The position numbers were made by a program, and so were the translations under genes. From contig CAWDGW010000017.1 in the NCBI GenBank assembly GCA_963801995.1, forward strand, positions 27,690 through 91,689: a stretch of 64,000 nucleotides of DNA, written 5' to 3'. This document shows, piece after piece, positions 1 through 58,647 of the stretch. How positions within the stretch are numbered: position 1 is the stretch's first letter; each line of letters starts with the position of its first letter. This DNA comes from an uncultured Holophagae bacterium (lineage in GTDB: Bacteria > Acidobacteriota > Thermoanaerobaculia > Thermoanaerobaculales > Sulfomarinibacteraceae). A model generated the notes under the pieces. That model was not told the DNA's origin. It was given only the letters and a program-made list of their open reading frames with translations, and searched no databases.

Positions 1-458
1 GCAACCTCTACCAGTTCCTGCCGAACGGGACTCTTGTGGGCACCGGTTCGGCCCCAACCAGCAAACCAACCGGCCTGACCTGGGACGGAACATATCTCTG
101 GACGGCAGATTACCAGGCCGATATGATCTACCAGTTCGACACCAGTGGGGCGGTTGTCCACTCCTTTCCCTCCCCGACTCCAAACCCATGGGGTGTCGCC
201 TGGTGCAGCGGTTCGCTATGGACCTCTGCAAGCGTTGACAACATGTATATCAAGGTGAACCCCACCACGGGAGCGGTGATCGAGTCGTTTCCGGCACCAG
301 CAGGCGCCTGGCCGCTGGGACAGGACTGCCAATCGGCCAACCTGCTCTGGTCAGTAGGGAACCACAACAACCTGATCTACCTCATCGACCTCGGCGTGCT
401 GTTCACCGACGGCTTCGAATCCGGCGACACCTCGGCGTGGTCGCAGACCGTGCCGTAA
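1..458 (+). CDS. 3' part of a secreted beta-propeller-like repeat protein (5' end outside window) ending in the DGFESGDTSAWS tail
   Basis: The reading frame is open from the window edge (track ORF 36..458). It has repeated blade-like segments (YLWTADYQADMIYQFD, SLWTSASVDNMYIKVN, LLWSVGNHNNLIYLID). The C-terminus is LFTDGFESGDTSAWSQTVP-stop. Confidence 0.6.
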   Translation, partial: NLYQFLPNGTLVGTGSAPTSKPTGLTWDGTYLWTADYQADMIYQFDTSGAVVHSFPSPTPNPWGVAWCSGSLWTSASVDNMYIKVNPTTGAVIESFPAPAGAWPLGQDCQSANLLWSVGNHNNLIYLIDLGVLFTDGFESGDTSAWSQTVP

Positions 459-483
459 CGGCGGGAAATGACCTTCCGAAGTC

Positions 484-632
484 AGTGCCATGACCGACAC
501 CTTTGGCATTGTGGTTCCCCAAGATCACAGACCGTTCACGACGTAGAGGCTCAAGATTCTCGGCCATGAACCGAGTCCATCGCGCGAAGTGTCATAAGTG
601 TCGGCCCTGGCACCAGAACTTGGCACCAGAAC
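484..632. repeat. REP/MITE-like element, long (~130 bp) variant
   Basis: Termini are AGTGCCAtgaCCGACA ... TGTCGGCCCTGGCAC. It is the reverse-oriented homologue of the element at 36401..36551. It is followed by a GGCAC-N8 tandem tail (cagaacttggcaccagaac). Confidence 0.6.
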
Positions 633-884
633 TTTTTGGGACACTATCCATTGTTCGACAGGTGCCAATCCAAACGGCGCAAACCAGAATCGCTGCGCAA
701 AACAGCAGGCTCACGAGGATCAGAGTCTTATTCACCCTTTTCTTCCCGGAGTTGCCTTACGATACGAATTCAGAGGACGTAAGCCGCGCTCGCGCGGGTC
801 GCGGTCCGCCTGAAACGACCCTGTTAGGCGTGTGTCACTCTTCATACCTGGATCTGGATGATAGCCCTGATTGGCAAATGACTG

Positions 885-1850
885 TCAAGTGCCGGGGAGT
901 CTCCCTGTGTCCTTCAGGAATCGCTGCAGATCGTCGTGGAGCTTGTCGAGACGCGGTCGTTGATTCTCGTCGATTGCGCTCCGGAGTCTTCCAATTCGGG
1001 TGAGAGTCTCGGGGTAGCTCGAAACGTAGAGCGCTATTTTTGCTTCATTCGCGACTGGATCTGAGTGGTACTCAAGAAATGCCCACAGAGCTGCGTTTGA
1101 AGCCGTGGTTCTGGTGAGCTGTTCCTCATTGGCGTGAGGATTCGACGTGGACCAGCCAACGGAGTTGCCTGTCTTGCCCAGAGCGGTGAGGAGTTGCCGA
1201 GCGAATTCGGGCGGAGGATGTTTGTACAGTTCTGTGGCCAGTCTCTTGGCCGCGATCTCTCGTCTGGCTGCTCCGAGGCCCGTCAGGACAGCGTGCCGAA
1301 ACCACTCAGGTTGATCCTGATCATCTGCCAGGCCCAGCAGAATCTCGAGCGCCTGGTCGGATTCAAGTCTTGCAATAGACTCCGCAATCACGTGCGCTGT
1401 TGGGGCGTCATCCTCAATTCGAAGAAGAGCGACAAGCGATGGTAGGGATCTACTATCTCGCATCAAGCCAACTGCGAAGATTAGGTTGTGTCTGACCTGC
1501 GCCCAATAGTGGTCTGAGAGCTGATCGAGAGGTGGCTCCGCGACCACCAGGAGTTCCAAAGCTGGGGCCAGGAAGCGGGGTTCTTGACCGAGATGGAAGG
1601 CGAATGACACGACACCGGCATGTGACCGCGCGGCCATTTGAGGAGCCTCGGCGACAAGATCCTGGAGAGCGAAAAAGAAATCGGGATGTTGTTTCCGTGA
1701 CTCAAGAATCCAATCAAGCAAGGCTTCCCTGTCAGATGAGGACAAAAGGTCGAGGGGTCTTGCGGGAGGGGGGAATCCTTCGAGGTCTTGACACGACGGC
1801 AAGGCCAGCGAAGTGATGAGAATGAGGGCGTGTATCGAAGTTCGCCTCAT
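885..1850 (-). CDS. putative lipoprotein, helical (HEAT/ARM-like) repeat protein
   Basis: 321-aa ORF. The N-terminus MRRTSIHALILITSLALPSCQ looks like a signal peptide with a lipobox-like Cys. The sequence is helix-rich and I recognised no catalytic motif. Confidence 0.5.
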   Translation of the reverse strand: MRRTSIHALILITSLALPSCQDLEGFPPPARPLDLLSSSDREALLDWILESRKQHPDFFFALQDLVAEAPQMAARSHAGVVSFAFHLGQEPRFLAPALELLVVAEPPLDQLSDHYWAQVRHNLIFAVGLMRDSRSLPSLVALLRIEDDAPTAHVIAESIARLESDQALEILLGLADDQDQPEWFRHAVLTGLGAARREIAAKRLATELYKHPPPEFARQLLTALGKTGNSVGWSTSNPHANEEQLTRTTASNAALWAFLEYHSDPVANEAKIALYVSSYPETLTRIGRLRSAIDENQRPRLDKLHDDLQRFLKDTGRLPGT

Positions 1851-1941
1851 GGCAAGGGTTCCCTCCTACAGCCTACCGATTTCGAGCTAAGCGGACCAAA
1901 CCCGGAAGGGTTTGGGTCCGCTTGAGCGAGTGGTTAGGCAT

Positions 1942-2211
1942 TCACTTCCCCTTGTAAACCGTGCTGCGGTGGCCGACCTTGACCACAATGACGATTAGAA
2001 CGTCGTCCTCGATCGAGTAGACGATCCTGTAGGGGCCCTGACGGACACGATACCTGCTTGAGTGCCCGGCGAGCTTCTCGCAACCAGGTGGTCGAGGGTC
2101 ATCAGACAATCGCGCGATACGGTTGACGATCTGACGCCGCACCTTTTTTGGCTCGATATGCTCGATTTCCTTTGCGGCGGAGGCTTTGAGCCGGACGCTA
2201 TATTTTGCCAC
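1942..2211 (-). CDS. type II toxin, RelE/ParE family
   Basis: 89 aa. The pattern ...DDPRPPGCEKLAGHSSRYRVRQGPYRIVYSIEDDVLIVIVVKVGHRS is typical of RelE/ParE toxins. It overlaps the upstream antitoxin ORF by 14 nt. Confidence 0.85.
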   Translation of the reverse strand: MAKYSVRLKASAAKEIEHIEPKKVRRQIVNRIARLSDDPRPPGCEKLAGHSSRYRVRQGPYRIVYSIEDDVLIVIVVKVGHRSTVYKGK

Positions 2212-2428
2212 TGCGTTTCAGCGCTTTAACGAAGGTGTCGAAATCAAGGTCCGGTTCAGAAGCTCGAACGTCGAACGCTTCAAGGTCTTCTGCATCTTCG
2301 GCCAGCGCCAATCGGACGGCATCATTTACCATTTCGGATATCGATTGGTCTGTAGACGCTGCCTTGAGTTTCAACGCCCTGTGAATCTCGGGATCAAGAT
2401 ATACGGTAGCTCGACGAAGTTCGCTCAT
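2198..2428 (-). CDS. ribbon-helix-helix (CopG-like) antitoxin
   Basis: 76 aa. The N-terminal RATVYLDPEIHRALKLKAA is an RHH beta-strand plus helix signature. It lies immediately upstream of, and overlaps, the RelE/ParE ORF. Confidence 0.8.
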   Translation of the reverse strand: MSELRRATVYLDPEIHRALKLKAASTDQSISEMVNDAVRLALAEDAEDLEAFDVRASEPDLDFDTFVKALKRSGKI

Positions 2429-2579
2429 GTTTGAAAGATAACGTCAAAACATCAAAACGTCAACTAGCCCAACGGTCCGCTGGAATGAGTTGTAGTAATG
2501 GTGCCAGGTACGGGTAATGGTGCCAGGTACGGGGGTATTGATGTTAAGATGACTCTACCGAATCCAGTGGAGATAGGGG

Positions 2580-3575
2580 ATGGGTCGTCGACCAAGGGTT
2601 CTTGTTGCGGGTGGTATATACCATGTGTACAACCGGGTAACTCGCGGCGCGGATGTTTTTAAGAACGAGGACGAGGCGGACAGGCTGGAAGCCCTCGTTG
2701 CCGAGACCAAGAAGAGAGACGATTTTCAGATCCTCGCCTGGTGCGTGATGTCGAACCACTACCATCTCGCCGTAAGAATGGGGGAGGTATTGCTGTCGCG
2801 ATCGATGCGAAGGATCCACCATCGGTTTTCGCAGAGTTACAACGGCAGGAATCGGCTGTTCGGTCCTTTCTGGCAGGGTCGCTACCGATCGAAGATTGTG
2901 GATGACGACGAGTATCTGAGGCAACTCATCGCGTACATTCATCTCAATCCGGTAGCTGCAGGCATTGTCACCGACGCAGCAGAATACCGATGGTGCGGGC
3001 ATCGGGAGGTACTGGGGAAGGCGCTTGGGCGTCGTTTGGTCGACGTTGACGAGACCCTATTGGCTTTCGGCCCCAAGCGGCGCAGCGCGTTGGCTGGATA
3101 TCGTTCGACGATGTCAAGTGGGCATGAACAGGATTGGTGGGGGGAAGGTCCTGGTCGGCTGCCCTGGTGGCGGGTGGGGCGTCCTCCGAACAGCGATGAC
3201 GGAATGGAGATCGCCGTCGACGACAAACGTCCACGGATTGGGGTGGACGGGCTGAGTAGTGTCATGCCGAGGCCGAGGATGGCGCTCGAAGAATTTCTCG
3301 AGCACGGTGCAGGAGCGTGCGGGATCACGCTGACAGATCTCAGGAGCCGAAAACGACGGGCGTCGATTGTAGAAGCTCGAGAAATACTGGCCTGGATTGG
3401 TGTTGAGTTGTTTGGTTTTTCGGTCAAGGAAATGGCCGAAGGGCTCGAAAAGTATGTTGAAACTGCCAGTCGGCTGGTCAGCAGGGCTTCGCAGCGAAGG
3501 ATTGTGGATCAGGGCTTTGAGGATCAGGTAAGGCGGGTTGATTCTGTACTCGCGGGGACGACGGAAACGCAATGA
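2580..3575 (+). CDS. REP-associated tyrosine transposase (RAYT, IS200/Y1 HUH family) with C-terminal DnaA-C-like HTH region
   Basis: YHVYNRVTRG start, HUH motif in WCVMSNHYHLAV, and a Tyr helix in LIAYIHLNPVAAGIV...YRWCGH. The C-terminal REILAWIGVELFGFSVKEMAEGL resembles a DnaA domain IV-type HTH. Confidence 0.85.
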   Translation: MGRRPRVLVAGGIYHVYNRVTRGADVFKNEDEADRLEALVAETKKRDDFQILAWCVMSNHYHLAVRMGEVLLSRSMRRIHHRFSQSYNGRNRLFGPFWQGRYRSKIVDDDEYLRQLIAYIHLNPVAAGIVTDAAEYRWCGHREVLGKALGRRLVDVDETLLAFGPKRRSALAGYRSTMSSGHEQDWWGEGPGRLPWWRVGRPPNSDDGMEIAVDDKRPRIGVDGLSSVMPRPRMALEEFLEHGAGACGITLTDLRSRKRRASIVEAREILAWIGVELFGFSVKEMAEGLEKYVETASRLVSRASQRRIVDQGFEDQVRRVDSVLAGTTETQ

Positions 3576-3712
3576 GGAGTCAAAACATCAATACCCCAGT
3601 ACCTGGCACCTTTACGCTCTTAAGGCGGGTTGATTCTGTACTCGCGGGGACGACGGAAACGCAATGAGGAGTCAAAACATCAATACCCCAGTACCTGGCA
3701 CCTTTACGCTCT
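3529..3712. repeat. perfect 92-bp tandem duplication (3529..3620 and 3621..3712)
   Basis: The two copies read identically by eye: taaggcgggttgattctgtactcgcggggacgacggaaacgcaatgaggagtcaaaacatcaataccccagtacctggcacctttacgctct. The duplication covers the last 47 nt of the RAYT gene plus its right inverted repeat. Confidence 0.9.
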
Positions 3713-3789
3713 TACCCGGGACGGTGCTACACTCGCATCGAGCTCGGTTCCAGCAGCGTGAGAGTTCAGGTCGGCAGGAGGAAGCGGGA

Positions 3790-4515: not shown

Positions 4516-4532
4516 TGAACAGGGAGGCTCCC

Positions 4533-7007: not shown

Positions 7008-7210
7008 GTATTTGCCCTGGTGCGGGAGTGGTGCCCGGCACCACGGAACCACTGCCAAACGTGATGTTTTCGTTACATCCGTATGATGACTTCGTGACCT
7101 CCGGGACCTACATTGAGATTGGAGACAAACACCGTGTGACGGCAGGTGGCTACCGTCGCGTGCCGGAGCGGCGGTGCCAGATCGAATCGAACTGTCTCAG
7201 GAGGTCAGTC

Positions 7211-9177
7211 ATGTTCGCACTCGCACGCAAGAATGTACTTTGGGCGGCCGTCGTGCTTGACGTTGCCGTTATCGGCCGCTGCCGGCGCCGAGGCCTCTCT
7301 GGAGCAGATGGAGGGATGGCCTTACGCGGGGCGAGCGCTGTCGCCGTCGATGCCGATCGCGACCTGGTCTATTCGGGCAGCGGTGGGGTCATTCTCGTGC
7401 TGGACGTGGCTGATCCTGCCATGCCGCAACTGTTGCATGACGGTCTGCACACCGACGGCCATGTTCGCGATCTGGGTTACGTCGGTGCGGACAAGCGTCT
7501 ATACGTGGCCGATTGGCGGGGCGGACTTGAAATCTGGGATGTCCAAGACCCGCAGAACCCGGTGCGGCTCAGCACCGTGCCGGTGTACTGCATCGGAACA
7601 GACAGCGACCAGCCGACCGATGGGCTGGTCCTTGCGGGTGGCTACCTGTATGTCAACGCCAACGAGGCCCGCGTCCACGCCTCGACATCTCTGATCCCGC
7701 CAATCCCGTCGATCTGGGCGTGCAGGCCGGTCCGTTGTGGTACTACACCTACGAGCGCGACACGGACGATGTTGCCGCTGAGGGTGGCTACGTCTACGTC
7801 GTGGGCAGCGGCATCGCCAAGTATCTCATCCGCAGCAGACGGAACCCTCGACAAGGTCGGCGAGAACACGTACATCGATAAAATCAGCTGCATTGAGGTT
7901 CAGGGATCTTACGCGTACGCGGGCGAATCAATCAATCCTGGGGGTCATCGATGTCAGTTCCTCCTACCCAAATACGGTGGGGAGCGTCGCCGTGTCCGAG
8001 GGTCTGAATGATCTGGCGTTGACCGGGAACTTCGTGGTGGGGGTGAACCGCAACGGCCTCCTCATCTTCGACGTTTTCAACGCCGCAACAGCCGCAGCAG
8101 ATCGCTTCTCTGCTTCTGCCTGACGGATACCGTGTGCGCCTGGACGGCGACCTTGCTTTCGTGTCCAGCGACGCCGCTGGCTTGCAGGTGATCGACATCA
8201 GCGACGTTCATAACCCCGTCCTGATCGGCAGCTTCGACACGGTGGGTACGACCTCCGGTGTGACGGTCGCAGGGAACTACGCATTCCTCGGCCAGAGCAC
8301 CGAAGGCCTCGTGATCACGGATGTCAGCGATCCGAGCGCGGTGCAATTCGCAGGCCGGTCCGACGATGGTGGCTCGGATCGCGGGATCCCTGCTGATCGG
8401 AAACTATCTGTACGTTTCGGACTGGTACGCACCTGCACTGAGGGGGCTCGATGTCAGCGACCTGTCCAACCCGGTCGAGGTGGGCGGCATCTTGGACTTC
8501 ACAGGCGGTTGGATCTGGCGACCGACGGGGAGGCACCTGTACGCGACGCGCTTCTCGGTCGATACGCAGTTGTACTACCTGCACGTTTTCGACCTGACGG
8601 ATCCTGCATCGCCGACGGAGCTGAGCATGATTCCGGTGTCACATCACGTTCTCGAAATTCAGTACGCAAATGACCATCTTTTTGCCATCGAGTTCTACGA
8701 CATGGGCTTGCACATTATCAACGTCGCCGATCCGAACAATCCGTTTGAAGACGCCTTCTATCCCGTTGATTGGGGTGAGGATGTCTGGATCCAGGGGGAT
8801 TATGCGTATGTGACGTCATTCCACCAGGGTCTGCTGGTGATGAACATCGGCGATCCCGCCAATCCGACCCTGGCCGGGAGCTTCTACGAGGTATTCCAGT
8901 TCGGCGATGTGGCCGTTTCCGGAGAGCCTGGCCTTCATCACAACTGGGACGACCGGAGAGCAGCACTTGCGGCTGTACGACGTGAGCGATCTGGACAACA
9001 TCTATGAGCTCGACCGGATCCGCTTGCCCGGCGACGCCTGGGATCTGACGGCGCAAGGTAACTATGCGTACGTGGCGGATGGCTTTGCCGGCCTGCCAGA
9101 TTCTACGCGCCGGGACCTGGGACGGGATGATGTTCGCCGACGGCTTCGAGTCGGGCGACATGTCGAGGCCTTCGTAG
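7211..9177 (+). pseudogene. LVIVD-repeat secreted protein, heavily frameshifted (about ten frame switches)
   Basis: ATG at 7211 after GGAGG. Repeated LVIVD-type units occur (GLEIWDVQDPQNP, GLQVIDISDVHNP, GLVITDVSDPSAV, GLDVSDLSNPVEV, LHIINVADPNNP, GLLVMNIGDPANP, LRLYDVSDLDNI). They are spread over track ORFs 7028, 7146, 7893, 8134, 8321 and 8907. The gene ends MMFADGFESGDMSRPS-stop at 9177. Confidence 0.7.
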
Positions 9178-10056: not shown

Positions 10057-10647
10057 CTACTCGACCGAGAACGACATCAGCTCCACGGGGACGATGTTCT
10101 GGCCGTAGACGGCGTCGTCTAACCTGACCTCATAGTCACTTGGGCTGGAGCAGAGGATATTGAATTGAACTGATTCCGCCGTTGCGGGGGCGACATGGCT
10201 CTCTAATGTCTCCTGCCATGTGGAGTCAACGACGAGAAGCGTGTCGAATTCATAGGCAAGAAAGAAACTGCAGCTTGTGTCGGTGTAGTAGTTTGCGCGA
10301 GCATAGCATGAGGTTTGACCGGACGCGATTTTGACTGAGAATCCCATGTCATAGGTCTCACCAGCGGTCACAGAAAAACACCCCTGTGCGATATGGACAT
10401 GATAGTTCGCGCCGTCGTACTGACCGTCCACCTCGATGCACCCGGCCGCCGTCGCGCCGTCGGCCGGCTGGTGCAGAAACGTGTCACCGTGAGTGAGCCA
10501 CCAATCGGTCAGATCGGTTGTGAAGTCGCAGTTGCTCAGGGAATTTCCCGCCTGATTGCAGTCCACGGCCCCGGCCGGTGCGGCGATCAGCCCGGTCAAC
10601 GCGATTAGCCCGATGATCATTGCGCCCCGATGTATCCCGTTCATCAT
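10057..10647 (-). CDS. secreted CBM4_9/jelly-roll-like protein ending in VPVELMSFSVE
   Basis: Signal peptide MMNGIHRGAMIIGLIALTGLIAAPAGA. The segment NCDFTTDLTDWWLTHG resembles the first strand of CBM4_9-type modules. The C-terminus is IVPVELMSFSVE-stop. Confidence 0.55.
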   Translation of the reverse strand: MMNGIHRGAMIIGLIALTGLIAAPAGAVDCNQAGNSLSNCDFTTDLTDWWLTHGDTFLHQPADGATAAGCIEVDGQYDGANYHVHIAQGCFSVTAGETYDMGFSVKIASGQTSCYARANYYTDTSCSFFLAYEFDTLLVVDSTWQETLESHVAPATAESVQFNILCSSPSDYEVRLDDAVYGQNIVPVELMSFSVE

Positions 10648-15171: not shown

Positions 15172-16095
15172 TCAGTTGACCTTGAAAGTGACATCTCCGT
15201 GTTCGAAGAAGTTGACGATCTGGGTTGCGGCTGCCACGCCCGCGTTGATGTTGGCTTCTGCGGTCTGGGCACCCATCTTCTTGGGCGTGAAGAAATAGCG
15301 GCCTTCGTACTGAGCCACGATACCGTCCTTACAGGTTGGCGCAATGTCCGAGAGATAGGCGAAATCGTCGCGTTCGGCGAACACTTTCATGAGGCCATCT
15401 TCATCGATGACTCCAAGCCGGGCGGTGTTGATCAGCGTACCGCCCCGGGGCATCTTCGAGAGCAGCTCGAAGTTGATTGATTTTGTTGTCTGTGGGTTCT
15501 CCGGGATGTGGAGAGAGACGTATTGGCAGGTCTCGTACAGCTCTTCGACCGAGCTGACCGGCGTGACGTCGTCCCTTTTGATGACCTTGTCGTCAACGAA
15601 TGGATCGAACGCATACACATCCATCCCGAATCCGTGGGCCACTTTCGCAACAAAGATGCCGACGTTTCCATAGGCGTGGATACCGATCTTTTTGCCGCGA
15701 AGCTCGGTGCCTGGTTTCCCGTTGTAGTTGTTGCGTGCGCTCATGACCATCATGCCGAACACGAGCTCCGCCACGGCGTTCGAGTTCTGTCCTGGGGTGT
15801 TCATGGCGACCACGTTCTTCTCAGCGGCCTTGGCACAGTCGATATTGTCGTATCCCGCGCCTGCGCGGACGACGATCTTCAATTGTTTGGCGGCATCCAG
15901 AACTTCGGCGGTGACTTTGTCACTGCGGATGATCATCGCGTCCACGTCGACGACCGCCGCCAGCAGATCCGCTTTGTCCGTATAGCTTTCGAGAAGCTGG
16001 ACATCGTAATGTGCGGTTTCGAACACTTCTACGAGCTGTTCGACTGCCGCCGGTGAAAACGGTTTCTCGGTCGCTACCAGAACTTTTTTCGGCAT
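15172..16095 (-). CDS. D-isomer-specific 2-hydroxyacid dehydrogenase (phosphoglycerate-dehydrogenase-like)
   Basis: MPKKVLVATEK start after GGGAGG. The NAD fold is KIGIHAYGNVGIFVAKVAHGFG. The overall family pattern is present (RAGAGYDNID, NTPGQNSNAVAE). Confidence 0.85.
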   Translation of the reverse strand: MPKKVLVATEKPFSPAAVEQLVEVFETAHYDVQLLESYTDKADLLAAVVDVDAMIIRSDKVTAEVLDAAKQLKIVVRAGAGYDNIDCAKAAEKNVVAMNTPGQNSNAVAELVFGMMVMSARNNYNGKPGTELRGKKIGIHAYGNVGIFVAKVAHGFGMDVYAFDPFVDDKVIKRDDVTPVSSVEELYETCQYVSLHIPENPQTTKSINFELLSKMPRGGTLINTARLGVIDEDGLMKVFAERDDFAYLSDIAPTCKDGIVAQYEGRYFFTPKKMGAQTAEANINAGVAAATQIVNFFEHGDVTFKVN

Positions 16096-16144
16096 CGGAT
16101 CCTCCCTGTTGGCCCGACTTGGCAATGTAACACAATGTCAACTC

Positions 16145-18297: not shown

Positions 18298-20092
18298 ATG
18301 AAACCGGTAGCTCTCGCACTTTGCGTACTGATGTTGACCCTTTTCGCCGCTGCCGATGCCCAGGCAGCTTATGTTGTGGGAGACCCAATCGCCGATTTCA
18401 CGTTGAATGACGCTTTTGGCACGCCGGTCTCGCTGAGCGACTTCGAAAACAAGGTGATCTGGCTGGATTTCTGGGCCGACTGGTGAAGCTTCTGTGGTGC
18501 GGAGGCTCCGCACGTACAGGAAATCTGGGAAACCTATCGTGATCGAGGGCTCATGGTGCTCAGCATCGGGGACAATATGACGCAGGCCAAATGCCAGGCG
18601 TGGATAGCCACTCTACGGCATGACCCATCCGGTGCTGGCCGACCCAGGCAGCGTCGTCAGTGATTTGTTCGGCAGCGCTCTGCCGCACAACTCCATCATC
18701 GACGGTGAGATGATCCTGCAGTACACCGCAGCTGGGTTCTACCACACAGCAGTCATCAACAAGATTGAGGAACTGCTGGACGAGCTGCTCTGGATCGATC
18801 ACGTCCCGGTGTTCGACTCGGAAGACGACGTGAATCCCTACTCAACCCACTGCTCGATCACATCGGAGTACCCGCTGATCCCCGATGATCTGATGCTGCA
18901 CTGGAACCTGGACGGCGGTGGGACCTTCAACGATGTGATCCTGACGGCTCTCGGCGGCGACGAGTACACCGCCGAGATTCCTGCTCAACCCTATGGAACA
19001 ACGGTGTATTACTACCTTTCCTCCGCCGATACGGGTGGCCGAACGATCACCGATCCCTCCGACGCCCCCGCCGAGCTGCACAGCTTCTATGTGGGAGAAG
19101 ACACGACACCGCCGGAGATCGATCATGAGCCACTGACGGATCGGTCCCTGTACATGTGGCCGTCCACGGTCAGTGCCACGGTCACAGATAATCTGGGCAA
19201 CGACAACACGGTCACCCTCGAGTTCATGATCAACGGGGGACCGGTTGAGTCGGTTCCAATGACAGGCATCACGGTTGTGTACGAAGCAGATTTCTTCGGC
19301 ACCTTGTTCGACGGTGACACTGTCGAGTATCGGATCATCGCCGTTGATGCTTCCGCCGCGGCGCACACGACCACCGATCCCGAATCGGGTTACCACTCCT
19401 TTTCTGTCGTCGAGGCGACTCCGGTGTTCATCTTCGAGCCTGGCGGGGCGCCGCTGAGCGGAGCCGCCATTGCTCAAGAGCTGGATGCGTTGGGCGTTGT
19501 CTACGACATGGAGACCACGGTGCCGGACAACTGCCTCCTGTACCGCTCCATATTCATGTGCCTGGGAGTTTACTCAAGCAATCATCAGCTCACGGCGGCC
19601 GAGGGACAGGTGCTGGCCGAGTTTCTTGACAACGGCGGCGGGCTGTACATGGAGGGCGGAGACACGTGGGCCTACGATCCCACCACGGCTGTGCACCCGT
19701 ACTTCAATATCAACGGCCTGGCCGACGGTACCGGCGACGCCGGGCCCATCCAGGGAACGGTCGGGACCTTTACCGAAGGGATGTACTTCACCTATGGGGG
19801 GGCGGGGACCAACAGCTATATCGATCACATCGCGCCCATGGGCGGTGCCCAAGCGATCTTCCTGAATGTCGCGCCGGCGTACATCAACGGGGTCGCCTAT
19901 GACGGGGGCACCTATCGCACCGTTGGAACGAGCTTCAAATTCGCGGGCCTGCAGGACGGGCCCGAGCCGAGCACCAAGAACGAGCTACTTGTGAAGATCC
20001 TCGAGTTCTTCGAAATGAACCCACGCGGCATTCTGCTCGAGGACGGCTTCGAGTCGGGCGACACGTCGGCGTGGAGCTCTACAGTGCCCTGA
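18298..20092 (+). CDS. secreted TlpA/ResA-like thioredoxin-fold domain (in-frame UGA in WUSFC) fused to a ~450-aa domain; ends in the DGFESGDTSAWS tail; one frameshift near 18613
   Basis: AAGGAGG precedes the ATG at 18298, followed by signal MKPVALALCVLMLTLFAAADAQA. The sequence reads VIWLDFWADW-TGA(18484..18486)-SFCGAEAP and continues in frame. The Trx fold resumes in track ORF 18620.. (YGMTHPVLADPGSVVSDLFG...PHNSIIDGEMIL) after a 1-nt shift. The C-terminus is LLEDGFESGDTSAWSSTVP-stop. Confidence 0.65.
18497..18513 (+). promoter_or_regulatory. candidate bacterial SECIS hairpin
   Basis: gtgcgga GGC tccgcac forms a perfect 7-bp stem. The loop G residues lie 20 nt after the U of the in-frame UGA. 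Flanking tgt/aca could extend the stem. Confidence 0.5.
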
Positions 20093-34556: not shown

Positions 34557-36390
34557 CATCATCGTATCGCGAGGCCAGGCGGAAGAACTCCTCGTCGACG
34601 ACGCCCTTCTGGCCGGGACAGCGGTCGTGACCACCACCCAGATTGGGGGGCCGAGGAAGGTCCCAACCGACGAGCATCTTCGCGAACAGATGCGGCGAAT
34701 TTCCGATGTTTTCCCCACCAACTCCGTGGACTACCGGCTTCGCGATCTGGGTGGGTTCAACAAAGCACCGACTCTGCTGAAGGTGAACAAACGGCTCAAG
34801 ACCGTTCGTGCCATGGACAAGGCCTGGGGCGACATCAACCCCGGCATCAGGAGTTTCGCGTTCCTCCTCGATATCGGTCCGTCCTCGACCAAGACCGGCA
34901 TGGCGTGGCTCAAGGTTTCTTCGACGTACGGGTTGTGGGCAGAGGCTCCAACCGCGGGAGGCAGATCAAGGAGCACCGGCGCGCACGAAGGTGCCCACAC
35001 CTGGGGACGAGCCCACGCAGTCTTCTTGTACCGACCGCCATGGGGATCGATCGGATTGTGTGGTTCGAAGTACAATGATTTGGCGTCACCCCATCATCCC
35101 TTTATCGAGTGGACCGGGATCGAGCACGATCTGGTGCACGATATCGATGACGCATGGCGCTTCTTCTGGCCGACGATTGGACCTTTGTCGGAGCCTGACG
35201 ATGAGATATGGGGTTTCTCTCCTCGGGCCTACGCCAACGGCGTGGGTTTCGATCATCTTGTTGTCATCGATCCCAGACTCAGCGCCGAGTTGATGTCCTA
35301 CTGCGATCAAGGCCGCGGTGAACAGGATCGCTGGGTGTCGTCCTTTTCGTACGAAAAGTTGCGGCAGCGGTTGGGAAGCGGAAATGGGGAGTCCGGATCT
35401 GACGGGGAGCTCGGAGGAGAAGGCGATTACATGATCATTGCCGGAGCCATCGATGATGTGACCGGCGAGGTCGAGATGGAGCCCGCTCTTCGCGTCACGG
35501 GATTCGACCCGGGTAACGACGTCGGAGAGGTGCACGTAGCGCTCGTGGATAGTCAGGGTGCCGAGATCTCGGCGCAGGACGTTGCGCTTCTGGTGGACGG
35601 TGACCACTCCTCGATGTCAGACGGTGTGGGCCCCGAGCCGGGTGCCTTTTTTGCGGCAGTAGAGATCCCGGCGGGGATAACCCCGGCAGGAATCGTCGTT
35701 TCCCTTGACGGCATCGAGATCGCGCAGGTCGAAGGGTCGGCGAATCCGCCAACCGTCGAGATCATTTCGCCCGTTGGAGGAAGTTCCGCCAGTGGATCGA
35801 TACCGATCAATTGGAACTTCGCGGATGTGAACGGCGATCTGCTGACGACGACGATCGTGTACAGCATCGACGGAGGTCTGACCTGGGAAACTCTCGCGGT
35901 CGATGTGGAAGGCACCGAATACGACGCTCCAACTCGTTTCCTCAGAGGCAGCGATCAGGCGCGGATTCGCGTGCTGGTGTCGGACGGATTCCACACCGCC
36001 GAGGCAACCTCGGAGATCTTCTCGGTGGATGCCGGATATCCCTTGGCGTCGATCGAATCTCCCATCAACGGCGCCGCGGTTGTGACCGATGGAATCGTCC
36101 ATCTGCGCGGCGATGGCTGGGATCCGGAGGATGGCGTGTTGGATGGCGTCCAGTTGGTCTGGGCATCCGATGTCGATGGTGTGCTCGGCACGGGTACGAG
36201 CATGTCGATTGCGGCCATTGAGTTGACCAGCGGGTGCCAATGGGTATCTCTCACCGCGACGGACGGCGATGGCCAATCGGACACCCGTGAAGTCGAAATC
36301 GACGTTGGCGCCACAGGATGCCTGGGACGGGAGTTCTCCGACGGATTCGAGTCCGGGGACACCTCAGCGTGGAGTGCGACATCACCGTAG
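34501..36390 (+). CDS. C-terminal ORF of the same protein: metzincin-motif protease region plus Ig-like domains, ending in the DGFESGDTSAWS tail
   Basis: HEGAHTWGRAH matches HExxHxxGxxH. It has no signal peptide of its own. Its frame opens only at 34492, overlapping the end of the upstream ORF. The C-terminus is EFSDGFESGDTSAWSATSP-stop. Confidence 0.7.
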   Translation: MVESASGAMNVDANPRGYDIIVSRGQAEELLVDDALLAGTAVVTTTQIGGPRKVPTDEHLREQMRRISDVFPTNSVDYRLRDLGGFNKAPTLLKVNKRLKTVRAMDKAWGDINPGIRSFAFLLDIGPSSTKTGMAWLKVSSTYGLWAEAPTAGGRSRSTGAHEGAHTWGRAHAVFLYRPPWGSIGLCGSKYNDLASPHHPFIEWTGIEHDLVHDIDDAWRFFWPTIGPLSEPDDEIWGFSPRAYANGVGFDHLVVIDPRLSAELMSYCDQGRGEQDRWVSSFSYEKLRQRLGSGNGESGSDGELGGEGDYMIIAGAIDDVTGEVEMEPALRVTGFDPGNDVGEVHVALVDSQGAEISAQDVALLVDGDHSSMSDGVGPEPGAFFAAVEIPAGITPAGIVVSLDGIEIAQVEGSANPPTVEIISPVGGSSASGSIPINWNFADVNGDLLTTTIVYSIDGGLTWETLAVDVEGTEYDAPTRFLRGSDQARIRVLVSDGFHTAEATSEIFSVDAGYPLASIESPINGAAVVTDGIVHLRGDGWDPEDGVLDGVQLVWASDVDGVLGTGTSMSIAAIELTSGCQWVSLTATDGDGQSDTREVEIDVGATGCLGREFSDGFESGDTSAWSATSP

Positions 36391-48524: not shown

Positions 48525-49466
48525 TCAACCAGGCAGCGACTTGGGCTTCATCAGGTTGTCTTCCATCATCTTGAGCTCGTCGATCCCGGAGATGATGATC
48601 TCGGGGTCAATCTCCAGCGCAGTGACTGTGGACTTGTCCTTGTAGTCGATCTGCGACAGGACGAATTTGATGCAATTGAGCCGCGCCTGCTTCTTGACGT
48701 CGGAGCGGACGATTGTCCACGGTGCGACGGTCCGGTTGGTTTCGGAAAGCATCTGGAACTTCTTGACGGTGTATTGGTCCCAGAGTTCCTGCGACCGTTC
48801 ATCCACGGGTGAAATCTTGTACTGCTTGAGCAGGTCGCCGTGGCGCGATCTGAACCGGCGGAGCTGCTCCTTTTTCGACACCGAAAAATAGAACTTGAAG
48901 AGCTTGATGCCATCCTTGACCAACATCTGTTCGAACATCGGCACATCTTTGAGAAAGCGCTTGTTCTCCTCGTCGGTGCAGAAACCCATGATCGGTTCCA
49001 CCATGGCGCGGTTGTACCAGGAGCGGTCGAAGAAGACGATCTCGCCGGCCGCCGGCAGGTTCGCCACATAACGCTGGAAAAACCACTGGGTTCGTTCCTT
49101 GTCGCTCGGTTTCTCCAGGGCGACCACCCGGGCTCCGCGGGGATTCATGTGCTCGGTGAAACGCTTGATGGTGCCACCCTTTCCGGCCGCGTCCCGTCCC
49201 TCGAAGAGCATCACGATCCGCAGGCCGTCGCGCCGCACCTGGGACTGCATCTTCATGAGTTCGATCTGGAGATCGTGGAGTTCCCGTTCGTACTCCAGGG
49301 TCGCTTTCTTGACCCAGACAGCTACCCGGTCCTTGCCGTTTTTGTCCTCGTGGCTCTTGAACGAAGTGTGTTCGCGGAGCTTCACCGCGCTCGGTTTTGC
49401 CGGGGTTTTGGTCTGCGCTTTTTTCGGCTTAGGGCTTTTCTTCTTGGAAGTCATGACTGTTGACAT
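48525..49466 (-). CDS. ppk2: polyphosphate kinase 2 family protein
   Basis: The P-loop is FEGRDAAGKGGTIKRF. Family motifs are FFDRSWYNRAMVEPIMGFC and ...PWTIVRSDVKKQARLN. Confidence 0.85.
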   Translation of the reverse strand: MSTVMTSKKKSPKPKKAQTKTPAKPSAVKLREHTSFKSHEDKNGKDRVAVWVKKATLEYERELHDLQIELMKMQSQVRRDGLRIVMLFEGRDAAGKGGTIKRFTEHMNPRGARVVALEKPSDKERTQWFFQRYVANLPAAGEIVFFDRSWYNRAMVEPIMGFCTDEENKRFLKDVPMFEQMLVKDGIKLFKFYFSVSKKEQLRRFRSRHGDLLKQYKISPVDERSQELWDQYTVKKFQMLSETNRTVAPWTIVRSDVKKQARLNCIKFVLSQIDYKDKSTVTALEIDPEIIISGIDELKMMEDNLMKPKSLPG

Positions 49467-49500
49467 CTCCTCGCTGCCATCAATCGACGGCCCGGAATTT

Positions 49501-50475
49501 TCAGCGGACGAACCTGCCCAGCTTCCTCTTCTGTTTTTGCATGATCTTCAACTCCTTGTCACCGGGGATGACGATGTCCGGATTCGGTGTGAAATCGAGG
49601 GTCCGGCTTCGCCCCGTGTACTTGATCTGGCTCAAGATCAATTTGATTGTTTCGAGCCGGGCGAGGGCCTTGTCGTCGGAACGGATGACGTACCAGGGCG
49701 TTTTCGGTGTGTGGGTCTTTTTCAGAAGGCGATACTTCATGTGGGTGAATTCGTCCCACAGGTCCTGGGCCTGGAGGTCGACTTCGCTCAGTTTCCACTG
49801 GCGCAGGGGATCGTTTTTCCGTCGTTCGAAGCGGCGGGCCTGTTCGTCCTTGGAAACCGAAAAGTAGAGTTTGATCAGGAAGGTCGCCTTGTCGGCGATG
49901 ATCCGCTCTTCGTACCCCACGACCTTGTCCATGAAACCTCTGTACTGCGCTTTGGTGCAAAACCCCATGACCGGCTCGACGAGAGCCCGGTTGTACCAGC
50001 TGCGATCGAAGAGAACGATCTCGCCGGCGTGCGGGAAATTCTCGATGTACCGTTTCATGTGGAGTTCGGTTCGCTGCTGAACCGTGGGTTTGCCGAGGGC
50101 GACGACGCGGTAGCGTTTTTCGTTCATGTAGCGGATCACGCGTCGGATCGTCCCGCCCTTGCCGGAGGCATCTCTGCCGTCAAACAGGATGATGGCCTTC
50201 TTGTTGGTCCGCTCGATGTGCTGCTGGAGCTTGATCAGCTCAGACTGATAGGGTTTGAGGACCTCAGATCTGAAGTACTTGGTGAGAGCCGCATTCAACA
50301 ACTCCTTGCGTTCCTTCTTTTTCAGGCCCTCTTGCACTGCCTGGATTTGATCGATGAGGGCCAGCCCGTACCCGTGGGACTCGATCCTCTCGACCACCGA
50401 CCGGATCCTCGAGGTGGACCCTTCGAGGCCTTCGGCTTTTGGCGCTGTCTGCTTTTTCTTGGATCCTGTTCCCAT
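49501..50475 (-). CDS. ppk2: polyphosphate kinase 2 family protein (second paralogue)
   Basis: FDGRDASGKGGTIRRV, LFDRSWYNRALVEPVMGFC and PWYVIRSDDKALARL. It lies 34 nt upstream of the first PPK2 gene on the same strand. Confidence 0.85.
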   Translation of the reverse strand: MGTGSKKKQTAPKAEGLEGSTSRIRSVVERIESHGYGLALIDQIQAVQEGLKKKERKELLNAALTKYFRSEVLKPYQSELIKLQQHIERTNKKAIILFDGRDASGKGGTIRRVIRYMNEKRYRVVALGKPTVQQRTELHMKRYIENFPHAGEIVLFDRSWYNRALVEPVMGFCTKAQYRGFMDKVVGYEERIIADKATFLIKLYFSVSKDEQARRFERRKNDPLRQWKLSEVDLQAQDLWDEFTHMKYRLLKKTHTPKTPWYVIRSDDKALARLETIKLILSQIKYTGRSRTLDFTPNPDIVIPGDKELKIMQKQKRKLGRFVR

Positions 50476-51399: not shown

Positions 51400-52437
51400 A
51401 TGTCCATGAAGCGAATCGGTATTCTGGCGTGCGTGGCCACCTTGATTGCAGCACCTCTTTTCTCCAACAGCCCCGGTATGGAGGCGACACCAGGCTTGGA
51501 GAATCGTGATGTTTCGGCCGTTTACATCTCCGATATAGACGGGGGATTCGTCGCGGTTGTGGATGTGTTGACCGACTCGATCATTGCGCTCAAGAAGACC
51601 GGTACGAATCCAGCAGAGACAGCCGTTTTCGGCGCTCTGGATCGCGCCTATGTGGCGGATCTGACCGACGGCACGGTTTCGGTGATCGACACGACGAACC
51701 ACCGGATCGTCCATACGGTCAATCTGGGAAGCCCGGTTGCGACGGTCGGTGTGGACGAAACCACCGGCACGGTGTACGCCCTCGATTTCAGCAATGGCAC
51801 ACCCGGAACGAATTTGCACATCATCGATGCCGACACCAACACCGAAATCGACGACGTCGTGATCGGTACACGACTCCAGAACCTCGCGGTCCACGCCAGC
51901 GAAAGCCGTGTCTACGCGACCGATTTTGTCGACGGAATCGTCGTGGTGGACACCACCAACAACACGGTTTCAACCACGATTCCGTTGCCCAACTCACCGC
52001 ACGGGATCGCCGTGAATCCTGCCACCGACAGTCTCTACGTGACGCAGCTGGACAACGATTCCGTAACGGTGTTCGATACCGGCACCCTGGGTGTCACCGC
52101 AACACTGGCGGTTGGTGACACGCCGCAGTGGATCGCACTGGACATCCCTCGAGGGAAGGCCTTTGTGACCAACGAAGGCGAAGGAACGGTATCGGTGATC
52201 GACATTGGCAGTAATACCGTGCTCCCGGGCCCGATTCAGGTGGGAGCCAATCCACTCACCGTGACCGTCCATTCCGGAGCCGCCAAAGCCTACGTCTTCA
52301 ACATCGGGGACGGCACGATTTCGGTCATCGATACGGTCAGCCAGGTCGTGATCGGTACCATCGATCTGGGGTTTGTGGTGTTCGCGGACGGGTTCGATTG
52401 GGGAGACACCACTGCCTGGTCTGTGGCGATCCCGTAG
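51400..52437 (+). CDS. secreted YVTN-type beta-propeller repeat protein ending in a DGFDWGDTTAWS tail
   Basis: Signal MSMKRIGILACVATLIAAPLFS. About 40-aa repeats occur (AYVADLTDGTVSVIDTTNHRIV, VYATDFVDGIVVVDTTNNTV, LYVTQLDNDSVTVFDTGTL, AFVTNEGEGTVSVIDIGSN, AYVFNIGDGTISVIDTVSQ). The C-terminus is VFADGFDWGDTTAWSVAIP-stop. Confidence 0.75.
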   Translation: MSMKRIGILACVATLIAAPLFSNSPGMEATPGLENRDVSAVYISDIDGGFVAVVDVLTDSIIALKKTGTNPAETAVFGALDRAYVADLTDGTVSVIDTTNHRIVHTVNLGSPVATVGVDETTGTVYALDFSNGTPGTNLHIIDADTNTEIDDVVIGTRLQNLAVHASESRVYATDFVDGIVVVDTTNNTVSTTIPLPNSPHGIAVNPATDSLYVTQLDNDSVTVFDTGTLGVTATLAVGDTPQWIALDIPRGKAFVTNEGEGTVSVIDIGSNTVLPGPIQVGANPLTVTVHSGAAKAYVFNIGDGTISVIDTVSQVVIGTIDLGFVVFADGFDWGDTTAWSVAIP

Positions 52438-52457: not shown

Positions 52458-53174
<717 letters not shown>

Positions 53175-56108: not shown

Positions 56109-56152
56109 GCGACTTTCGGGAACCCCAGCTACCGACCTGAACCACGGGGAGG

Positions 56153-56403
56153 AATCGTGGTGCAGCCGTCTCGGCTGGTTTGAATCGAAAATCGAAAATC
56201 GAAAATCGAAAATCCACCCTCCCACCCAAGCGATGCGGATAGGCGTCACCGTCTTCGACCTCCCATACCCCCCCCACACATACCTTCCACACCCTGACCT
56301 TTGAGCTGTGCAGGCTGGAAGCCCGCACCACAATCAGGCACAGCCAACAGCGGCAAGGAACCGGCGGGAGGAGATTGCGGTGCAGCCATCCTGGCTGGAC
56401 ATC
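56153..56403. repeat. cluster of GCTGTGCAGGCTGGAAGCCCGCACCACAAT-family units plus a (ATCGAAA)x4 microsatellite
   Basis: An inverted-type unit (aatcgtggtgcagccgtctcggctgg) lies at 56153..56183. The heptamer array is at 56184..56214. A forward unit at 56303..56337 faces an inverted unit at 56373..56403. Confidence 0.8.
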
Positions 56404-56445
56404 ACGACGGTGGAGCCCGAAGGGCGCGAGCAACTGCCCGCGGGG

Positions 56446-56991
56446 CTAACGGTCTTCGGGCAACGTCAGGGGAGGGAGGTGAAAAGGGGCGAGTTTGTTC
56501 GCTCCATCGAAGTCCTCGTGGGTGCCGACGAAGAAACCGCTCTGCCGGCCGCTCCCGCCGCTGTCACCTTCGTTATCGCTCACACGGCTGAGATCGTACT
56601 GCCCCCATATGCTTCTGTTCGAGCCCAATTTTGGCAGGGCTATCCGGCCGTCCGCGCCGTAGGAGAAATACTCCTTGTGCTTCAGGCCGGGATTCCACCG
56701 GCTTGATGTTTCAAGAGTGCCAGACTCCGGGTACCGAAAGACGAGAATGCCGTCTTCGACCGGCAGCTCCGGACCGCCCGGGATGTTGTAGGCCACGGCG
56801 GCCCATCCTCGGTAGCCCTCCGGCACGAGATGCCGTTCCGGCAGGCCCTCTTCAATACCGTGGGCGCGTCGAAAGTCGTCTTTAGCGCTCTCGGGAACAA
56901 CGAACCAAACGAACGCAAGCGCCCCTGCACCCACCACGATGATGGTGCCGACGGCCCAAGCGAAGATACGAGCGATGCTGTCGTGTGCCAA
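56446..56991 (-). CDS. membrane-anchored hypothetical protein
   Basis: 181 aa. The N-terminal helix is IARIFAWAVGTIIVVGAGALAFVWFVV. No motif recognised. Confidence 0.5.
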   Translation of the reverse strand: MAHDSIARIFAWAVGTIIVVGAGALAFVWFVVPESAKDDFRRAHGIEEGLPERHLVPEGYRGWAAVAYNIPGGPELPVEDGILVFRYPESGTLETSSRWNPGLKHKEYFSYGADGRIALPKLGSNRSIWGQYDLSRVSDNEGDSGGSGRQSGFFVGTHEDFDGANKLAPFHLPPLTLPEDR

Positions 56992-57179
56992 ACCTCACCT
57001 CAGTTCACCCTGCGCTGCCAACTCACCGACAACAGCAGGCCACAGCCGTAGCCAGGGGGGTCGTCTCGAGGGAGGGGGCTGGTGTACGGCTGTCTGCTGG
57101 TGGCGGGGAGTCGCGTTGAAGCAGCCAACGGCTGCGACAACGTAAACTGCCAACGGCCAACGGCCAACTGCCAACCTGC

Positions 57180-58647
57180 CTACGGAACCGTCACCGACCA
57201 GGCCGTGGTATCTCCCGATTCGAACCCGTCTCCAAAGATCGCGGCGGGCCCCAGGCTGCCGTCGCCGTTCACGTTCTGGGCGAGGATGTCGCCATCCGAG
57301 AAGCCCCCGTCACTCCACGCGTAGGCTGCAAAGCCCTGCGAGGAGAGGGCACCGACGAGCCTCGATGACTCTGTGGGCAGGATGTCCACCTCGGTGATCG
57401 GCGGCGACCACGCGAAGTCCCCGTTGGTGTCGACCCGGATCGCATACACCGGATCGTTGCCGAGGCCATCACTGTGAATCCAGGCCACCATCGCTCCGTC
57501 GTTGAAGGCCAAGGTGGCGATATCCCTAATCTGGACCGGGCTGATGGGCATCAGCTCGCGGCCGCTGTCGTCCCACTGCCGGACGCCACCGGCATCGAGC
57601 TTCTGGCCGTAAAGGCCCCACTGGCTTTGCCCGAGGTTCTCCTCGGTCCAGAAGACGACGATCTCCTGGGTCGACGGGAGGAATGCGGCCCTCGGGCCGA
57701 CCCGCTGCTGCGTGGCGTTGGTGGAGACCTCGACGCCCTGGTGGGCGAAGGCTTCGGATCCATTGGCGAGGATCCGCTGGACACGGCACTGGAGCGACGG
57801 AGAGGTGATGTACCAGGAGAAGACCGCACCGCCGGCACCGTCGCTGACGAACGGCGGCCAGTTGCCCATTTGCAGGGAGGAACCGCCGTCGTAGACCTGA
57901 ACGTGCCCCGCACCCCACAGCAGGGCACCGTCCGCGGCGGCCAGCTTCTGCGCCCACAGGTGTCGCGTCCAGAAAACGGGGCTGGCGACGAACGACACGA
58001 TCGCGGTGCCGGCGTCAGAGGCGCGGAGATCACCTACGGAGAACGAGTCGGATGCCGAGGACAGGGTCACCCCGGCACCCCACAGTGCCGTTCCGGTGGG
58101 ATCGAGCTTCTGCGCCGCCACGCTGTCGTCGCTGGTCCATGCCACCACCACGTTCCCGTCGGTGGTGCCGGCGACTTTTGGTGCGGCGAAAAAGTTCGGT
58201 CCAGTGGCTACCTGCACGCCGTCTGCGCCCCATAGTAGGGTGCCGTCCGGGGAGACCTTTGCGACCGTGATTTCGTCGGACCCGCTGCGGTTGTCTCGGA
58301 AGGCGAGCAGGGCATTGCCCCCGGTGTCGATGCTCAGACCATAGTCCTGGGTCGAGCTGTACGTCCGATCCGCCACCAACACCCCGTTGTGGGCCCATTG
58401 CTCGTCGCCCGCCGCATCGAGACGCTGCAGGTAGACGTCGTAGCCACCGGTGGAGTTGTCGAACCAGCTGATATAGAAGCCTCCGTCGCCGGTGGCCACG
58501 ATTTTGGGTTGTACCTGTGCCCCTGAACGGTTGGCCACTATCAGGTTGGTTGCCGGGTCGCTGGACCACTCGGCCTAGGACAGACACTGAAGACTGCGGT
58601 CAAGACGATCAACACCAGGACCAGGGATCGTGGTACGCGGAATGCAT
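57180..58647 (-). CDS. secreted repeat protein ending in the DGFESGDTTAWS tail; N-terminal signal region out of frame
   Basis: Track ORF 57180..58538, whose frame opens at 58574. Upstream are an ATG at 58647 and a signal-like LVLVLIVLTAVFSV, both in other frames, so two shifts are needed. The C-terminus is IFGDGFESGDTTAWSVTVP-stop. Confidence 0.55.

Follow-up and report, generated by a model that had tools for sequence, protein, structure and literature searches.

Why do proteins of quite different architecture, encoded within one short stretch of a bacterial chromosome, end in almost the same peptide? The stretch in question, called the window in the following, comprises 64,000 nucleotides of an uncultured Holophagae bacterium (NCBI GenBank assembly GCA_963801995.1, contig CAWDGW010000017.1, positions 27,690 to 91,689 of the forward strand). 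An original prediction, made from the letters of the window alone, had noticed the shared ending on at least five secreted proteins and had proposed it as a candidate sorting or attachment tag. The answer that we prefer, with a probability of roughly 55%, is that this tail serves as an anchor-free docking or sorting tag of a kind not yet described, which is read in trans by a partner in the cell envelope, probably via β-strand pairing.

Copies of the Tail in the Window

Six-frame translation of the window revealed five intact copies of [ILV]-F-x-DGFESGDT[ST]AWS-x-x-V-P-stop, together with one decayed and one orphan copy. The copies and the open reading frames (ORFs) that carry the intact ones are as follows, with bit scores from a hidden Markov model (HMM).

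399..458, + strand: tail copy 1, LFTDGFESGDTSAWSQTVP and stop; HMM 41.7 bits
3..458, + strand: carrier of copy 1, a propeller fragment cut by the left window edge
20033..20092, + strand: tail copy 2, LLEDGFESGDTSAWSSTVP and stop; HMM 39.4 bits
18620..20092, + strand: carrier ORF of copy 2, with a Trx-like part and signal peptide upstream in another frame, from near 18299
36331..36390, + strand: tail copy 3, EFSDGFESGDTSAWSATSP and stop; HMM 33.4 bits
31740..34556 and 34501..36390, + strand: carrier of copy 3, a giant ELWxxDGT-repeat protein with Ig-like domains
52378..52437, + strand: tail copy 4, VFADGFDWGDTTAWSVAIP and stop; found by pattern and HMM
51400..52437, + strand: carrier of copy 4, a YVTN β-propeller with an in-frame signal peptide
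57180..57239, - strand: tail copy 5, IFGDGFESGDTTAWSVTVP and stop (57180-57182); HMM 39.6 bits
57180..58538, - strand: carrier of copy 5, a sialidase/PL25-like propeller
9130..9177, + strand: decayed tail copy, MFADGFESGDMSRPS and stop; HMM 11.2 bits
15089..15145, - strand: orphan tail copy, PIFADGFENGDTLEWSVSVP / IFADGFENGDTLEWSVSVP, with no stop directly after; HMM 22.3 bits

The five intact copies are terminal and lie where the original prediction had put them, with stops at 458, 20092, 36390 and 52437 on the + strand and at 57180-57182 on the - strand. An HMM constructed from 77 tails of other genomes gave E-values of 5e-12 to 1e-14 for the four window copies that it matched best, and the back-translated pattern D-G-F-[DE]-x-G-D-T-x-[AE]-W matched the window six times, as compared with 0.00 matches in 100 shuffles. 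The overlapping ORFs 31740..34556 and 34501..36390, which are in different frames, were read as one gene with a frameshift. Two degenerate tails had also been proposed. The one on an LVIVD-type gene (about 7028..9177), which is broken by several frameshifts, is real and is the decayed copy listed above; the other, at the end of a beta-helix protein near 46470 (46408-46467), gave no match to the HMM of 77 tails and was left out of the copy count. The orphan copy, overlooked before, lies in the spacer after the gene of a cytoplasmic 2-hydroxyacid dehydrogenase (15172..16125, - strand), in a different frame and in no long ORF, and probably represents what is left of a carrier gene that was lost.

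Pairwise comparison of six window copies gave 57, 52 and 128 differences at codon positions 1, 2 and 3, respectively, and the serine codons of the tail alternate between TCN and AGY among the copies. Because the differences fall mainly on third positions and the serine codons switch between the two families, selection acts on the peptide and not on the DNA, as had been claimed. Past the stop codon the copies are no longer similar in DNA, apart from a 21-nt repetitive extragenic palindromic (REP)-like repeat, a distinct element unrelated to the tail, which lies directly 3' of two to three tail copies. The codon-position pattern and the end of similarity at the stop speak against a DNA repeat or mobile element as the nature of the tail, and this reading was rejected.

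The Tail Is Clade-Restricted and Terminal

Scanning one genome from each of 185,579 species with the pattern D-G-F-[DE]-x-G-D-T-x-A-W yielded at least 117 loci, with 128 matches among those listed, and every locus came from a metagenome-assembled genome (MAG). The tail is restricted to one clade: the label is Thermoanaerobaculia, Thermoanaerobaculales, Holophagae, 'Candidatus Multivoradales' or Acidobacteriota for nearly all listed loci, and for a few it is Deltaproteobacteria (2 loci), Polyangiaceae, Gemmatimonadota, Kangiella or Acidimicrobiia, these taxon counts being a sample of at least 117 loci. Nine residues are fixed in the scan pattern, so that a logo of the matches overstates the invariance at those positions.

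The stop codon lies exactly 16 codons past the Asp in 77 of the 128 listed matches (DGFESGDTSAWS-x-x-V-P-stop), at most 16 codons past it in 104, and at most 30 codons past it in 119 of the 127 that could be scored. The last residue is Pro in 64 of the 77 canonical copies, and Trp is last in just 8 of the 128 listed matches. Short forms finish at W, WS, W-S-x or W-S-x-P, which leaves [ILV]-F-x-DGFE-x-GDT-x-AW as the invariant core. Among the eight longer cases, one reads through into a seeming sigma-factor gene (by eye), one continues into a full jelly-roll domain (locus L049), one into acidic dockerin-like repeats (by eye) and two into other sequence, and three have short extensions.

A profile of six window tails, searched against 1.84 billion protein cluster representatives, gave 4,528 matches at E<=1e-3. 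In the best 150 of these, the C-terminus was at most 3 residues away in 100 of the 110 single-copy matches; the tail was duplicated in tandem in three proteins (P0006, P0008 and P0013), and present as linker-separated copies in another (P0010). More than 100 independent assemblies, obtained with different technologies, show the tail in this terminal position. The tail is thus almost always at the extreme C-terminus, in agreement with what had been noticed in the window.

Carriers of the Tail Are Enriched for Signal Peptides

The carriers in the window comprise the propeller fragment, a protein of unknown fold, the ELWxxDGT-repeat protein with Ig-like domains, the YVTN propeller and the sialidase/PL25-like propeller; the unknown-fold carrier, which ends at 20092, was read as fused to the Trx-like part. 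Carriers elsewhere, recognized mostly by eye from motifs, include subtilisin-like and BNR/sialidase-like proteins, beta-helices with GA[FY]E endings, and others. Several identities of carriers and of their neighbours were likewise assigned by eye from sequence and not by model searches.

By a crude heuristic, signal-peptide-like N-termini were present on 65 of 84 complete carriers (77%), and on 88 of the 370 remaining ORFs of those loci (odds ratio 11, p = 6e-20), and some carriers seem by eye to have lipoprotein signal peptides. The tail is therefore linked to export, and a general lack of signal peptides on the carriers, the finding that the original prediction had named as speaking against itself, is not what was observed. 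Its further statement, that all carriers with a visible N-terminus have a signal peptide, stands for the genes starting at 31740 and 51400, where the signal peptide is clear and in frame, and not for the carriers ending at 20092 and 57180, where it is found only upstream of a frameshift and, for the former, also upstream of an in-frame TGA. In the orthologues of the 57180..58538 protein, which measure about 490 residues, the N-terminus mostly extends beyond that of the window copy.

Homology to the First Hairpin of Jelly-Roll Domains

In the top multi-copy matches of the tail profile (P0002, P0004, P0005, P0009, P0015 and P0020), the motif opens each repeat unit of about 200 residues. In those units it aligns with positions 1-40 of PF14099 (Polysacc_lyase), 3-46 of PF02018 (CBM_4_9) and 4-22 of NF033675 (NTTRR-F1), which we took as the first β-strands of a concanavalin-like jelly roll. 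A profile of 214 positions was made from nine units of six proteins, and every tail matched it at positions 1-17 only. Judged from these alignments, the tail is homologous to the β1-turn-β2 hairpin of a jelly-roll domain of the PF14099, CBM4_9 or NTTRR-F1 kind, in line with the likeness to the first strand of CBM4_9/LamG-type modules that had been pointed out for the window copies.

The rest of the domain follows the motif in a single one of the 128 listed related matches, that of L049; no jelly-roll sequence was found past the tail stop in any frame, either in the window or in the at least 117 related loci. Because the remaining 110-200 residues are absent and unrelated domains precede the tail, we regard it as a fragment turned module and not as a member of a jelly-roll family. 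The hairpin has become a free-standing terminal module in this clade and is internal in other organisms. In two proteins (P0015 and P0006), an array of domains is followed by one extra hairpin at the end. As a database query, the L049 domain without its hairpin retrieved no homologues, and the full jelly-roll unit had no sequence relative in the Protein Data Bank.

Viral contigs present both arrangements. The identical motif DGFESGDTSAW opens a full jelly-roll domain of 230-620 residues in low-GC phage contigs (L152, L154, L157 and L158); in high-GC viral contigs (L153, L155 and L156) it ends the protein as a tail.

The original prediction had reasoned that it would fall if the motif were commonly internal, as the start of a full domain. 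This is what is seen in other organisms and in phage contigs; in this clade it is seen, among the matches listed, only in L049. A truncated CBM/LamG domain was rejected for this clade on account of the terminal stops and the lack of jelly-roll sequence after them in the window and the listed loci, and is the true description elsewhere.

The Tail Is Conserved but Is Not Predicted to Pack on Its Carrier

AlphaFold2 models, computed with orthologue alignments, gave predicted local distance difference test (pLDDT) values above 90 for the YVTN propeller (residues 40-322) and the sialidase-like propeller (residues 8-424), and of about 40-50 for both tails, which made no contacts with the body. In these models, then, the tail apparently does not pack on its carrier. 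Its conservation was assessed in 31 orthologues of the 51400..52437 propeller (49-69% identical), in which the tail, with a mean column identity of 0.68, came close to the propeller (0.71) and lay well above the N-terminus (0.32). The tail pattern was matched in 30 of the 31, and had diverged to DGFESADSDTWSFVTP in the remaining one (P0182). Such a conserved but unstructured appendage looks like a motif that is read by another protein.

Replacement of the Tail in Orthologues, and a Second Tail

The tail behaves like one of several exchangeable end modules. It is present on about 106 of the 120 proteins orthologous to the one encoded at 57180..58538, and different C-terminal modules stand in its place on some of the others. 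Four of these (P0349, P0363, P0369 and P0370) end in [IV]PVEL[MQ]-x-F-[ST]-[VI]-[ER]-stop, and four (P0374, P0382, P0384 and P0387) run on into a longer extension that closes with DPCP instead of the tail. A Phycisphaerae-labelled orthologue (P0385) has dockerin-like repeats at the tail position, a weak match of 14.8 bits, below the cut-off, and two orthologues stop at ...IF-x-NGFE. In P0375, a Laminin_G_3 domain has been inserted (505-668), and the tail is still terminal (...IFADDFESGDTDRWSTALP). Among the orthologues of the YVTN propeller, P0167 has an IPTL-CTERM-like helix followed by RRKK at the tail position, scoring 16.2 bits over the whole model against a cut-off of 20.5.

A true IPTL-CTERM, scoring 26.7 bits and thus above the curated cut-off, occurs in a locus of the same clade (L083), which indicates that bacteria of this clade do use C-terminal tags. 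Further IPTL-CTERM scores on proteins of the clade were just below the cut-off (L077 and L064) or well below it (L067). Weak 'midcut-by-XrtH' matches hint at an exosortase-type system beside the tails without membrane anchor.

The ending of the four orthologues P0349, P0363, P0369 and P0370 is a second short tail, which is also found in the window itself.

10057..10092, - strand: second short tail, VPVELMSFSVE and stop, on the secreted CBM4_9-like protein 10057..10647, which ends ...NIVPVELMSFSVE-stop

The second tail behaves much as the first does. A metagenome scan for it gave 34 loci (L118-L151) with diverse carriers; the stop codon follows immediately in 30 of the 34, and four of the contigs also encode the first tail. 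No Pfam or NCBIfam model covered the second tail, whether within the whole protein or as an isolated peptide at E<=10. The CBM4_9-like protein itself had been suggested as a partner that the first tail might complement. This finds no support and was rejected, as the protein has its own first strand (CBM_4_9 positions 2-128) and its own, different C-terminal tail.

Comparison with Known C-Terminal Signals

The tail had no Pfam or NCBIfam match, either with whole carriers (E<=1 for NCBIfam) or with isolated tails (E<=10), whereas IPTL-CTERM was detected by the same procedure; a match to a curated sorting model, which the original prediction had named as a reason to give it up, was thus not found. 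Full-text searches of the literature on such motifs, on sorting signals of Thermoanaerobaculia or Acidobacteriota and on strand complementation brought up nothing relevant to the tail. It may have gone unnoticed because all carriers come from MAGs, which are under-sampled in curated resources.

The tail has no hydrophobic stretch, no Arg or Lys, three acidic residues and a V-P end; the hydrophobic helix and basic cluster of other sorting signals are absent, as had been observed. PEP-CTERM, IPTL-CTERM, MYXO-CTERM, GlyGly-CTERM and LPXTG are, like the tail, short clade-restricted C-terminal signatures on many unrelated Sec-exported proteins, with many per genome, and other C-terminal tags take the place of such tripartite tags, as they do that of the tail, in orthologues of other lineages. 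Tripartite tags, however, have a transmembrane helix and a basic cluster, while the tail is acidic and has neither. Sorting models (TIGR02595, TIGR04174, TIGR01167 and others) did not match the carriers or the isolated tails, and no exosortase, rhombosortase or sortase gene was found in the 64-kb window.

The C-terminal domain (CTD) of the type IX secretion system (T9SS), a feature of Bacteroidota and relatives, resembles the tail in being an anchor-free, β-structured signal on Sec-exported, largely hydrolytic or adhesin-like proteins, read after export in the periplasm. It is a folded beta-sandwich of 70-100 residues, however, whereas the tail is a hairpin of 17-19 residues at most, far shorter, as had been said. 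The CTD models (TIGR04183 and PF18962) gave no match on the carriers, and AlphaFold2 showed no folded domain past the body. Jelly-roll domains share the N-terminal GFE-x-G...W hairpin with the tail, from which their complete beta-sandwich of about 130-210 residues is missing.

Type I secretion signals go without a Sec signal peptide and usually follow repeats-in-toxin (RTX) repeats, whereas 77% of the complete carriers have signal-peptide-like N-termini, and RTX repeats were not apparent in the carriers of the window. The outer-membrane β-signal is the last strand of a barrel and has an aromatic end, whereas the carriers are soluble propellers or beta-helices and the canonical tail mostly ends in Pro. 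This signal and the Bacteroidota-type O-glycosylation sequon D-[ST]-[AILVMT] were dropped as candidates, since the commonest tail (D-T-S, V-P end) fits neither.

Two systems serve as analogies. Dockerins are small C-terminal modules that dock many secreted enzymes to a common scaffold, which makes them a working analogy for the tail, although a dockerin (PF00404) has about 60-70 residues and consists of a duplicated loop-helix unit that binds Ca, and in this the tail is unlike it; Dockerin_1 did not match the window carriers, and the only match was the sub-threshold one on P0385. In donor-strand complementation of chaperone-usher pili, a donated strand completes the beta-sandwich of a partner, but the donor strands of pilins are N-terminal and the tail is C-terminal. 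No cohesin-like or strand-deficient receptor was found in the window or the related loci.

Discussion

The tail is a stand-alone, anchor-free module of about 19 residues, [ILV]-F-x-D-G-F-E-[ST]-G-D-T-[ST]-A-W-[ST]-x-x-V-P-COOH, at the extreme C-terminus of many unrelated Sec-exported proteins. We propose that a common envelope partner would bind it, most plausibly by strand pairing with the hairpin, and that the exported enzyme would in this way be retained on the surface of the cell or be carried through the outer membrane. That the tail is recognized in trans, that strands pair and where in the cell the carriers end up is what we infer from the observations above; the same holds for the sorting or attachment function of the original prediction, which is strengthened by the replacement of the tail by other C-terminal modules in orthologues. 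More tentatively, DGFESGDTSAWS-x-x-VP and the second tail may both be address labels of an undiscovered envelope pathway in uncultured Acidobacteriota, short anchor-free β-strand tags on Sec-exported proteins that would be captured by strand complementation through a periplasmic, outer-membrane or surface receptor, in which case the jelly-roll hairpin would complete the strand-deficient sandwich of the receptor.

Several points weigh against a tag that is read in trans. No partner, processing enzyme, receptor or sortase-like gene was found in the 64-kb window, and the recurrent non-carrier neighbours in the at least 117 loci look generic by eye (kinase-like, SDR-like and sulfatase-like). The receptor predicted by strand complementation, a jelly roll without its first hairpin, was absent from the window and from about 0.9 Mb of related loci, which is far too small a sample to exclude it. 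A functionless appendage would give low AlphaFold2 confidence too. The evidence for module swaps rests on few orthologues, and two of the replacement modules are below curated cut-offs. The carriers are all from MAGs or metagenomes, and the support is computational throughout. Finally, we know of no pathway that reads a short anchor-free C-terminal signal on Sec-exported proteins.

It is unlikely, though it deserves serious weight, that the tail works in cis on its own carrier or is a relic, being either the leftover first hairpin of a C-terminal jelly roll that was repeatedly lost, or a generic acidic β-hairpin cap, which could guard exported proteins rich in β-structure against edge aggregation or carboxypeptidases and would need no partner. 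The restriction of the match to positions 1-17 of 214, the full domain in L049 and several phage contigs, the domain arrays elsewhere in which each unit opens with the motif, and the single extra hairpin ending P0015 and P0006 would all suit a leftover. A relic would not, however, keep at least 13 near-invariant residues across thousands of unrelated proteins, the precise x-x-V-P end of 77 of the 128 listed matches, or a conservation like that of the folded core in one orthologue family (0.68 vs 0.71). The carriers examined are beta-rich (propellers, and beta-helix-type endings by eye) and a C-terminal proline hinders many carboxypeptidases, both of which would fit a cap; yet AlphaFold2 docks the tail on neither of the two carriers modelled, and because the last domains of the carriers are very different, there is no common surface for it to bind in cis. 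The persistence of the tail as the last element after the domain insertion in P0375, and its replacement by other terminal modules in orthologues, likewise argue for the docking or sorting tag.

There is a small chance that the tail is something other than a trans tag, a cis element or relic, a processing signal or an artefact.

It is improbable that the tail is a signal for processing or turnover, in which a protease of the periplasm or the cell exterior, such as a C-terminal processing protease with a PDZ domain, would read the free C-terminus and would remove the tail to activate the enzyme or would degrade export failures. The strictly terminal position, the conserved end (V-P-COOH, or W-COOH in short forms) and the flexible, accessible tail of the models are consistent with this, and hydrolases like those among the carriers are often made as pro-forms. 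PDZ proteases, however, read the last 3-4 residues, whereas the conserved core of the tail lies 5-16 residues from the end, and the short variants (W, WS, W-S-x-P) keep the core and change the terminus. Moreover, no protease gene was linked to the carriers in the window or the loci, and tails duplicated in tandem are hard to account for as cleavage or degradation signals.

An artefact, be it a mobile element, a repeat in the DNA, or the opening of a complete CBM/LamG domain cut by frameshift or truncation in a poor assembly, might be suspected from the several frameshifted genes of the window, the REP-like repeat just 3' of two to three tail copies and the full domains that begin with the identical motif in other taxa, but is effectively refuted by the concentration of variation at third codon positions with TCN/AGY serine switches, the end of DNA similarity at the stop with the REP-like element set apart, the same terminal arrangement in more than 100 independent assemblies, and the lack of jelly-roll sequence in all frames downstream of the stop, both in the window and in the related loci.

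C-terminal tags have repeatedly led to the machines that read them: LPXTG to sortase, PEP-CTERM to exosortase, the CTD to the T9SS and GlyGly-CTERM to rhombosortase. The tag-like peptide described here marks at least thousands of proteins (the 4,528 cluster representatives) and is missed by current annotation resources, in a clade that is abundant in soil, sediment and marine settings and has essentially no cultured members. If it is a sorting or docking label, the tail would define the set of secreted or surface-displayed enzymes of these bacteria, would offer a clean handle for finding the partner, and would be the first short anchor-free signal of this kind on Sec substrates; if the envelope pathway exists, it would represent a new principle of secretion or surface display in diderm bacteria. 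Should the tail prove to be structural only, its profile would still improve annotation and the calling of domain boundaries in Acidobacteriota MAGs, and would document how the first hairpin of a jelly roll turns into a module of its own.

Other Features of the Window

The rest of the window is ordinary chromosome, encoding a beta-lactamase/tetratricopeptide repeat protein, a penicillin amidase, an M1 peptidase, an aldehyde:ferredoxin oxidoreductase, a phospholipase D, radical-SAM enzymes, a molybdopterin enzyme, a two-component system and two polyphosphate kinase 2 (PPK2) genes, the latter in tandem at 48525..50475 on the - strand.

The 21-nt REP-like repeat, AGTCAGTGCCAGGGCCGACAC, has at least seven copies in the window against 0.14 expected, and these are apparently intergenic.

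480: REP-like repeat copy
6991, - strand: REP-like repeat copy
11600: REP-like repeat copy
12129: REP-like repeat copy
16141: REP-like repeat copy
36397: REP-like repeat copy
36517, - strand: REP-like repeat copy

Two of the copies form an inverted pair about 100 bp apart. The gene 2580..3575 (+ strand) encodes an IS200-like Y1 transposase domain and a DnaA-C-like helix-turn-helix, and could be a REP-associated tyrosine transposase.

Frame changes are needed to read the LVIVD-type gene (about 7028..9177), the Trx-like fusion (near 18600), the ELWxxDGT protein (34500..34556) and the N-terminus of the 57180..58538 protein (about 58540..58610); these broken genes are either assembly indel errors or true pseudogenes. 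The Trx-like ORF 18299..18610 (+ strand) also contains the in-frame TGA mentioned above (18485-18487), at the position of the first Cys of the redox motif (FWADW-TGA-SFCG). A strong hairpin is predicted a few bases 3' of it (free energy dG -18.9 kcal/mol, z -2.65), and this TGA is possibly a selenocysteine codon with a selenocysteine insertion sequence (SECIS)-like element.

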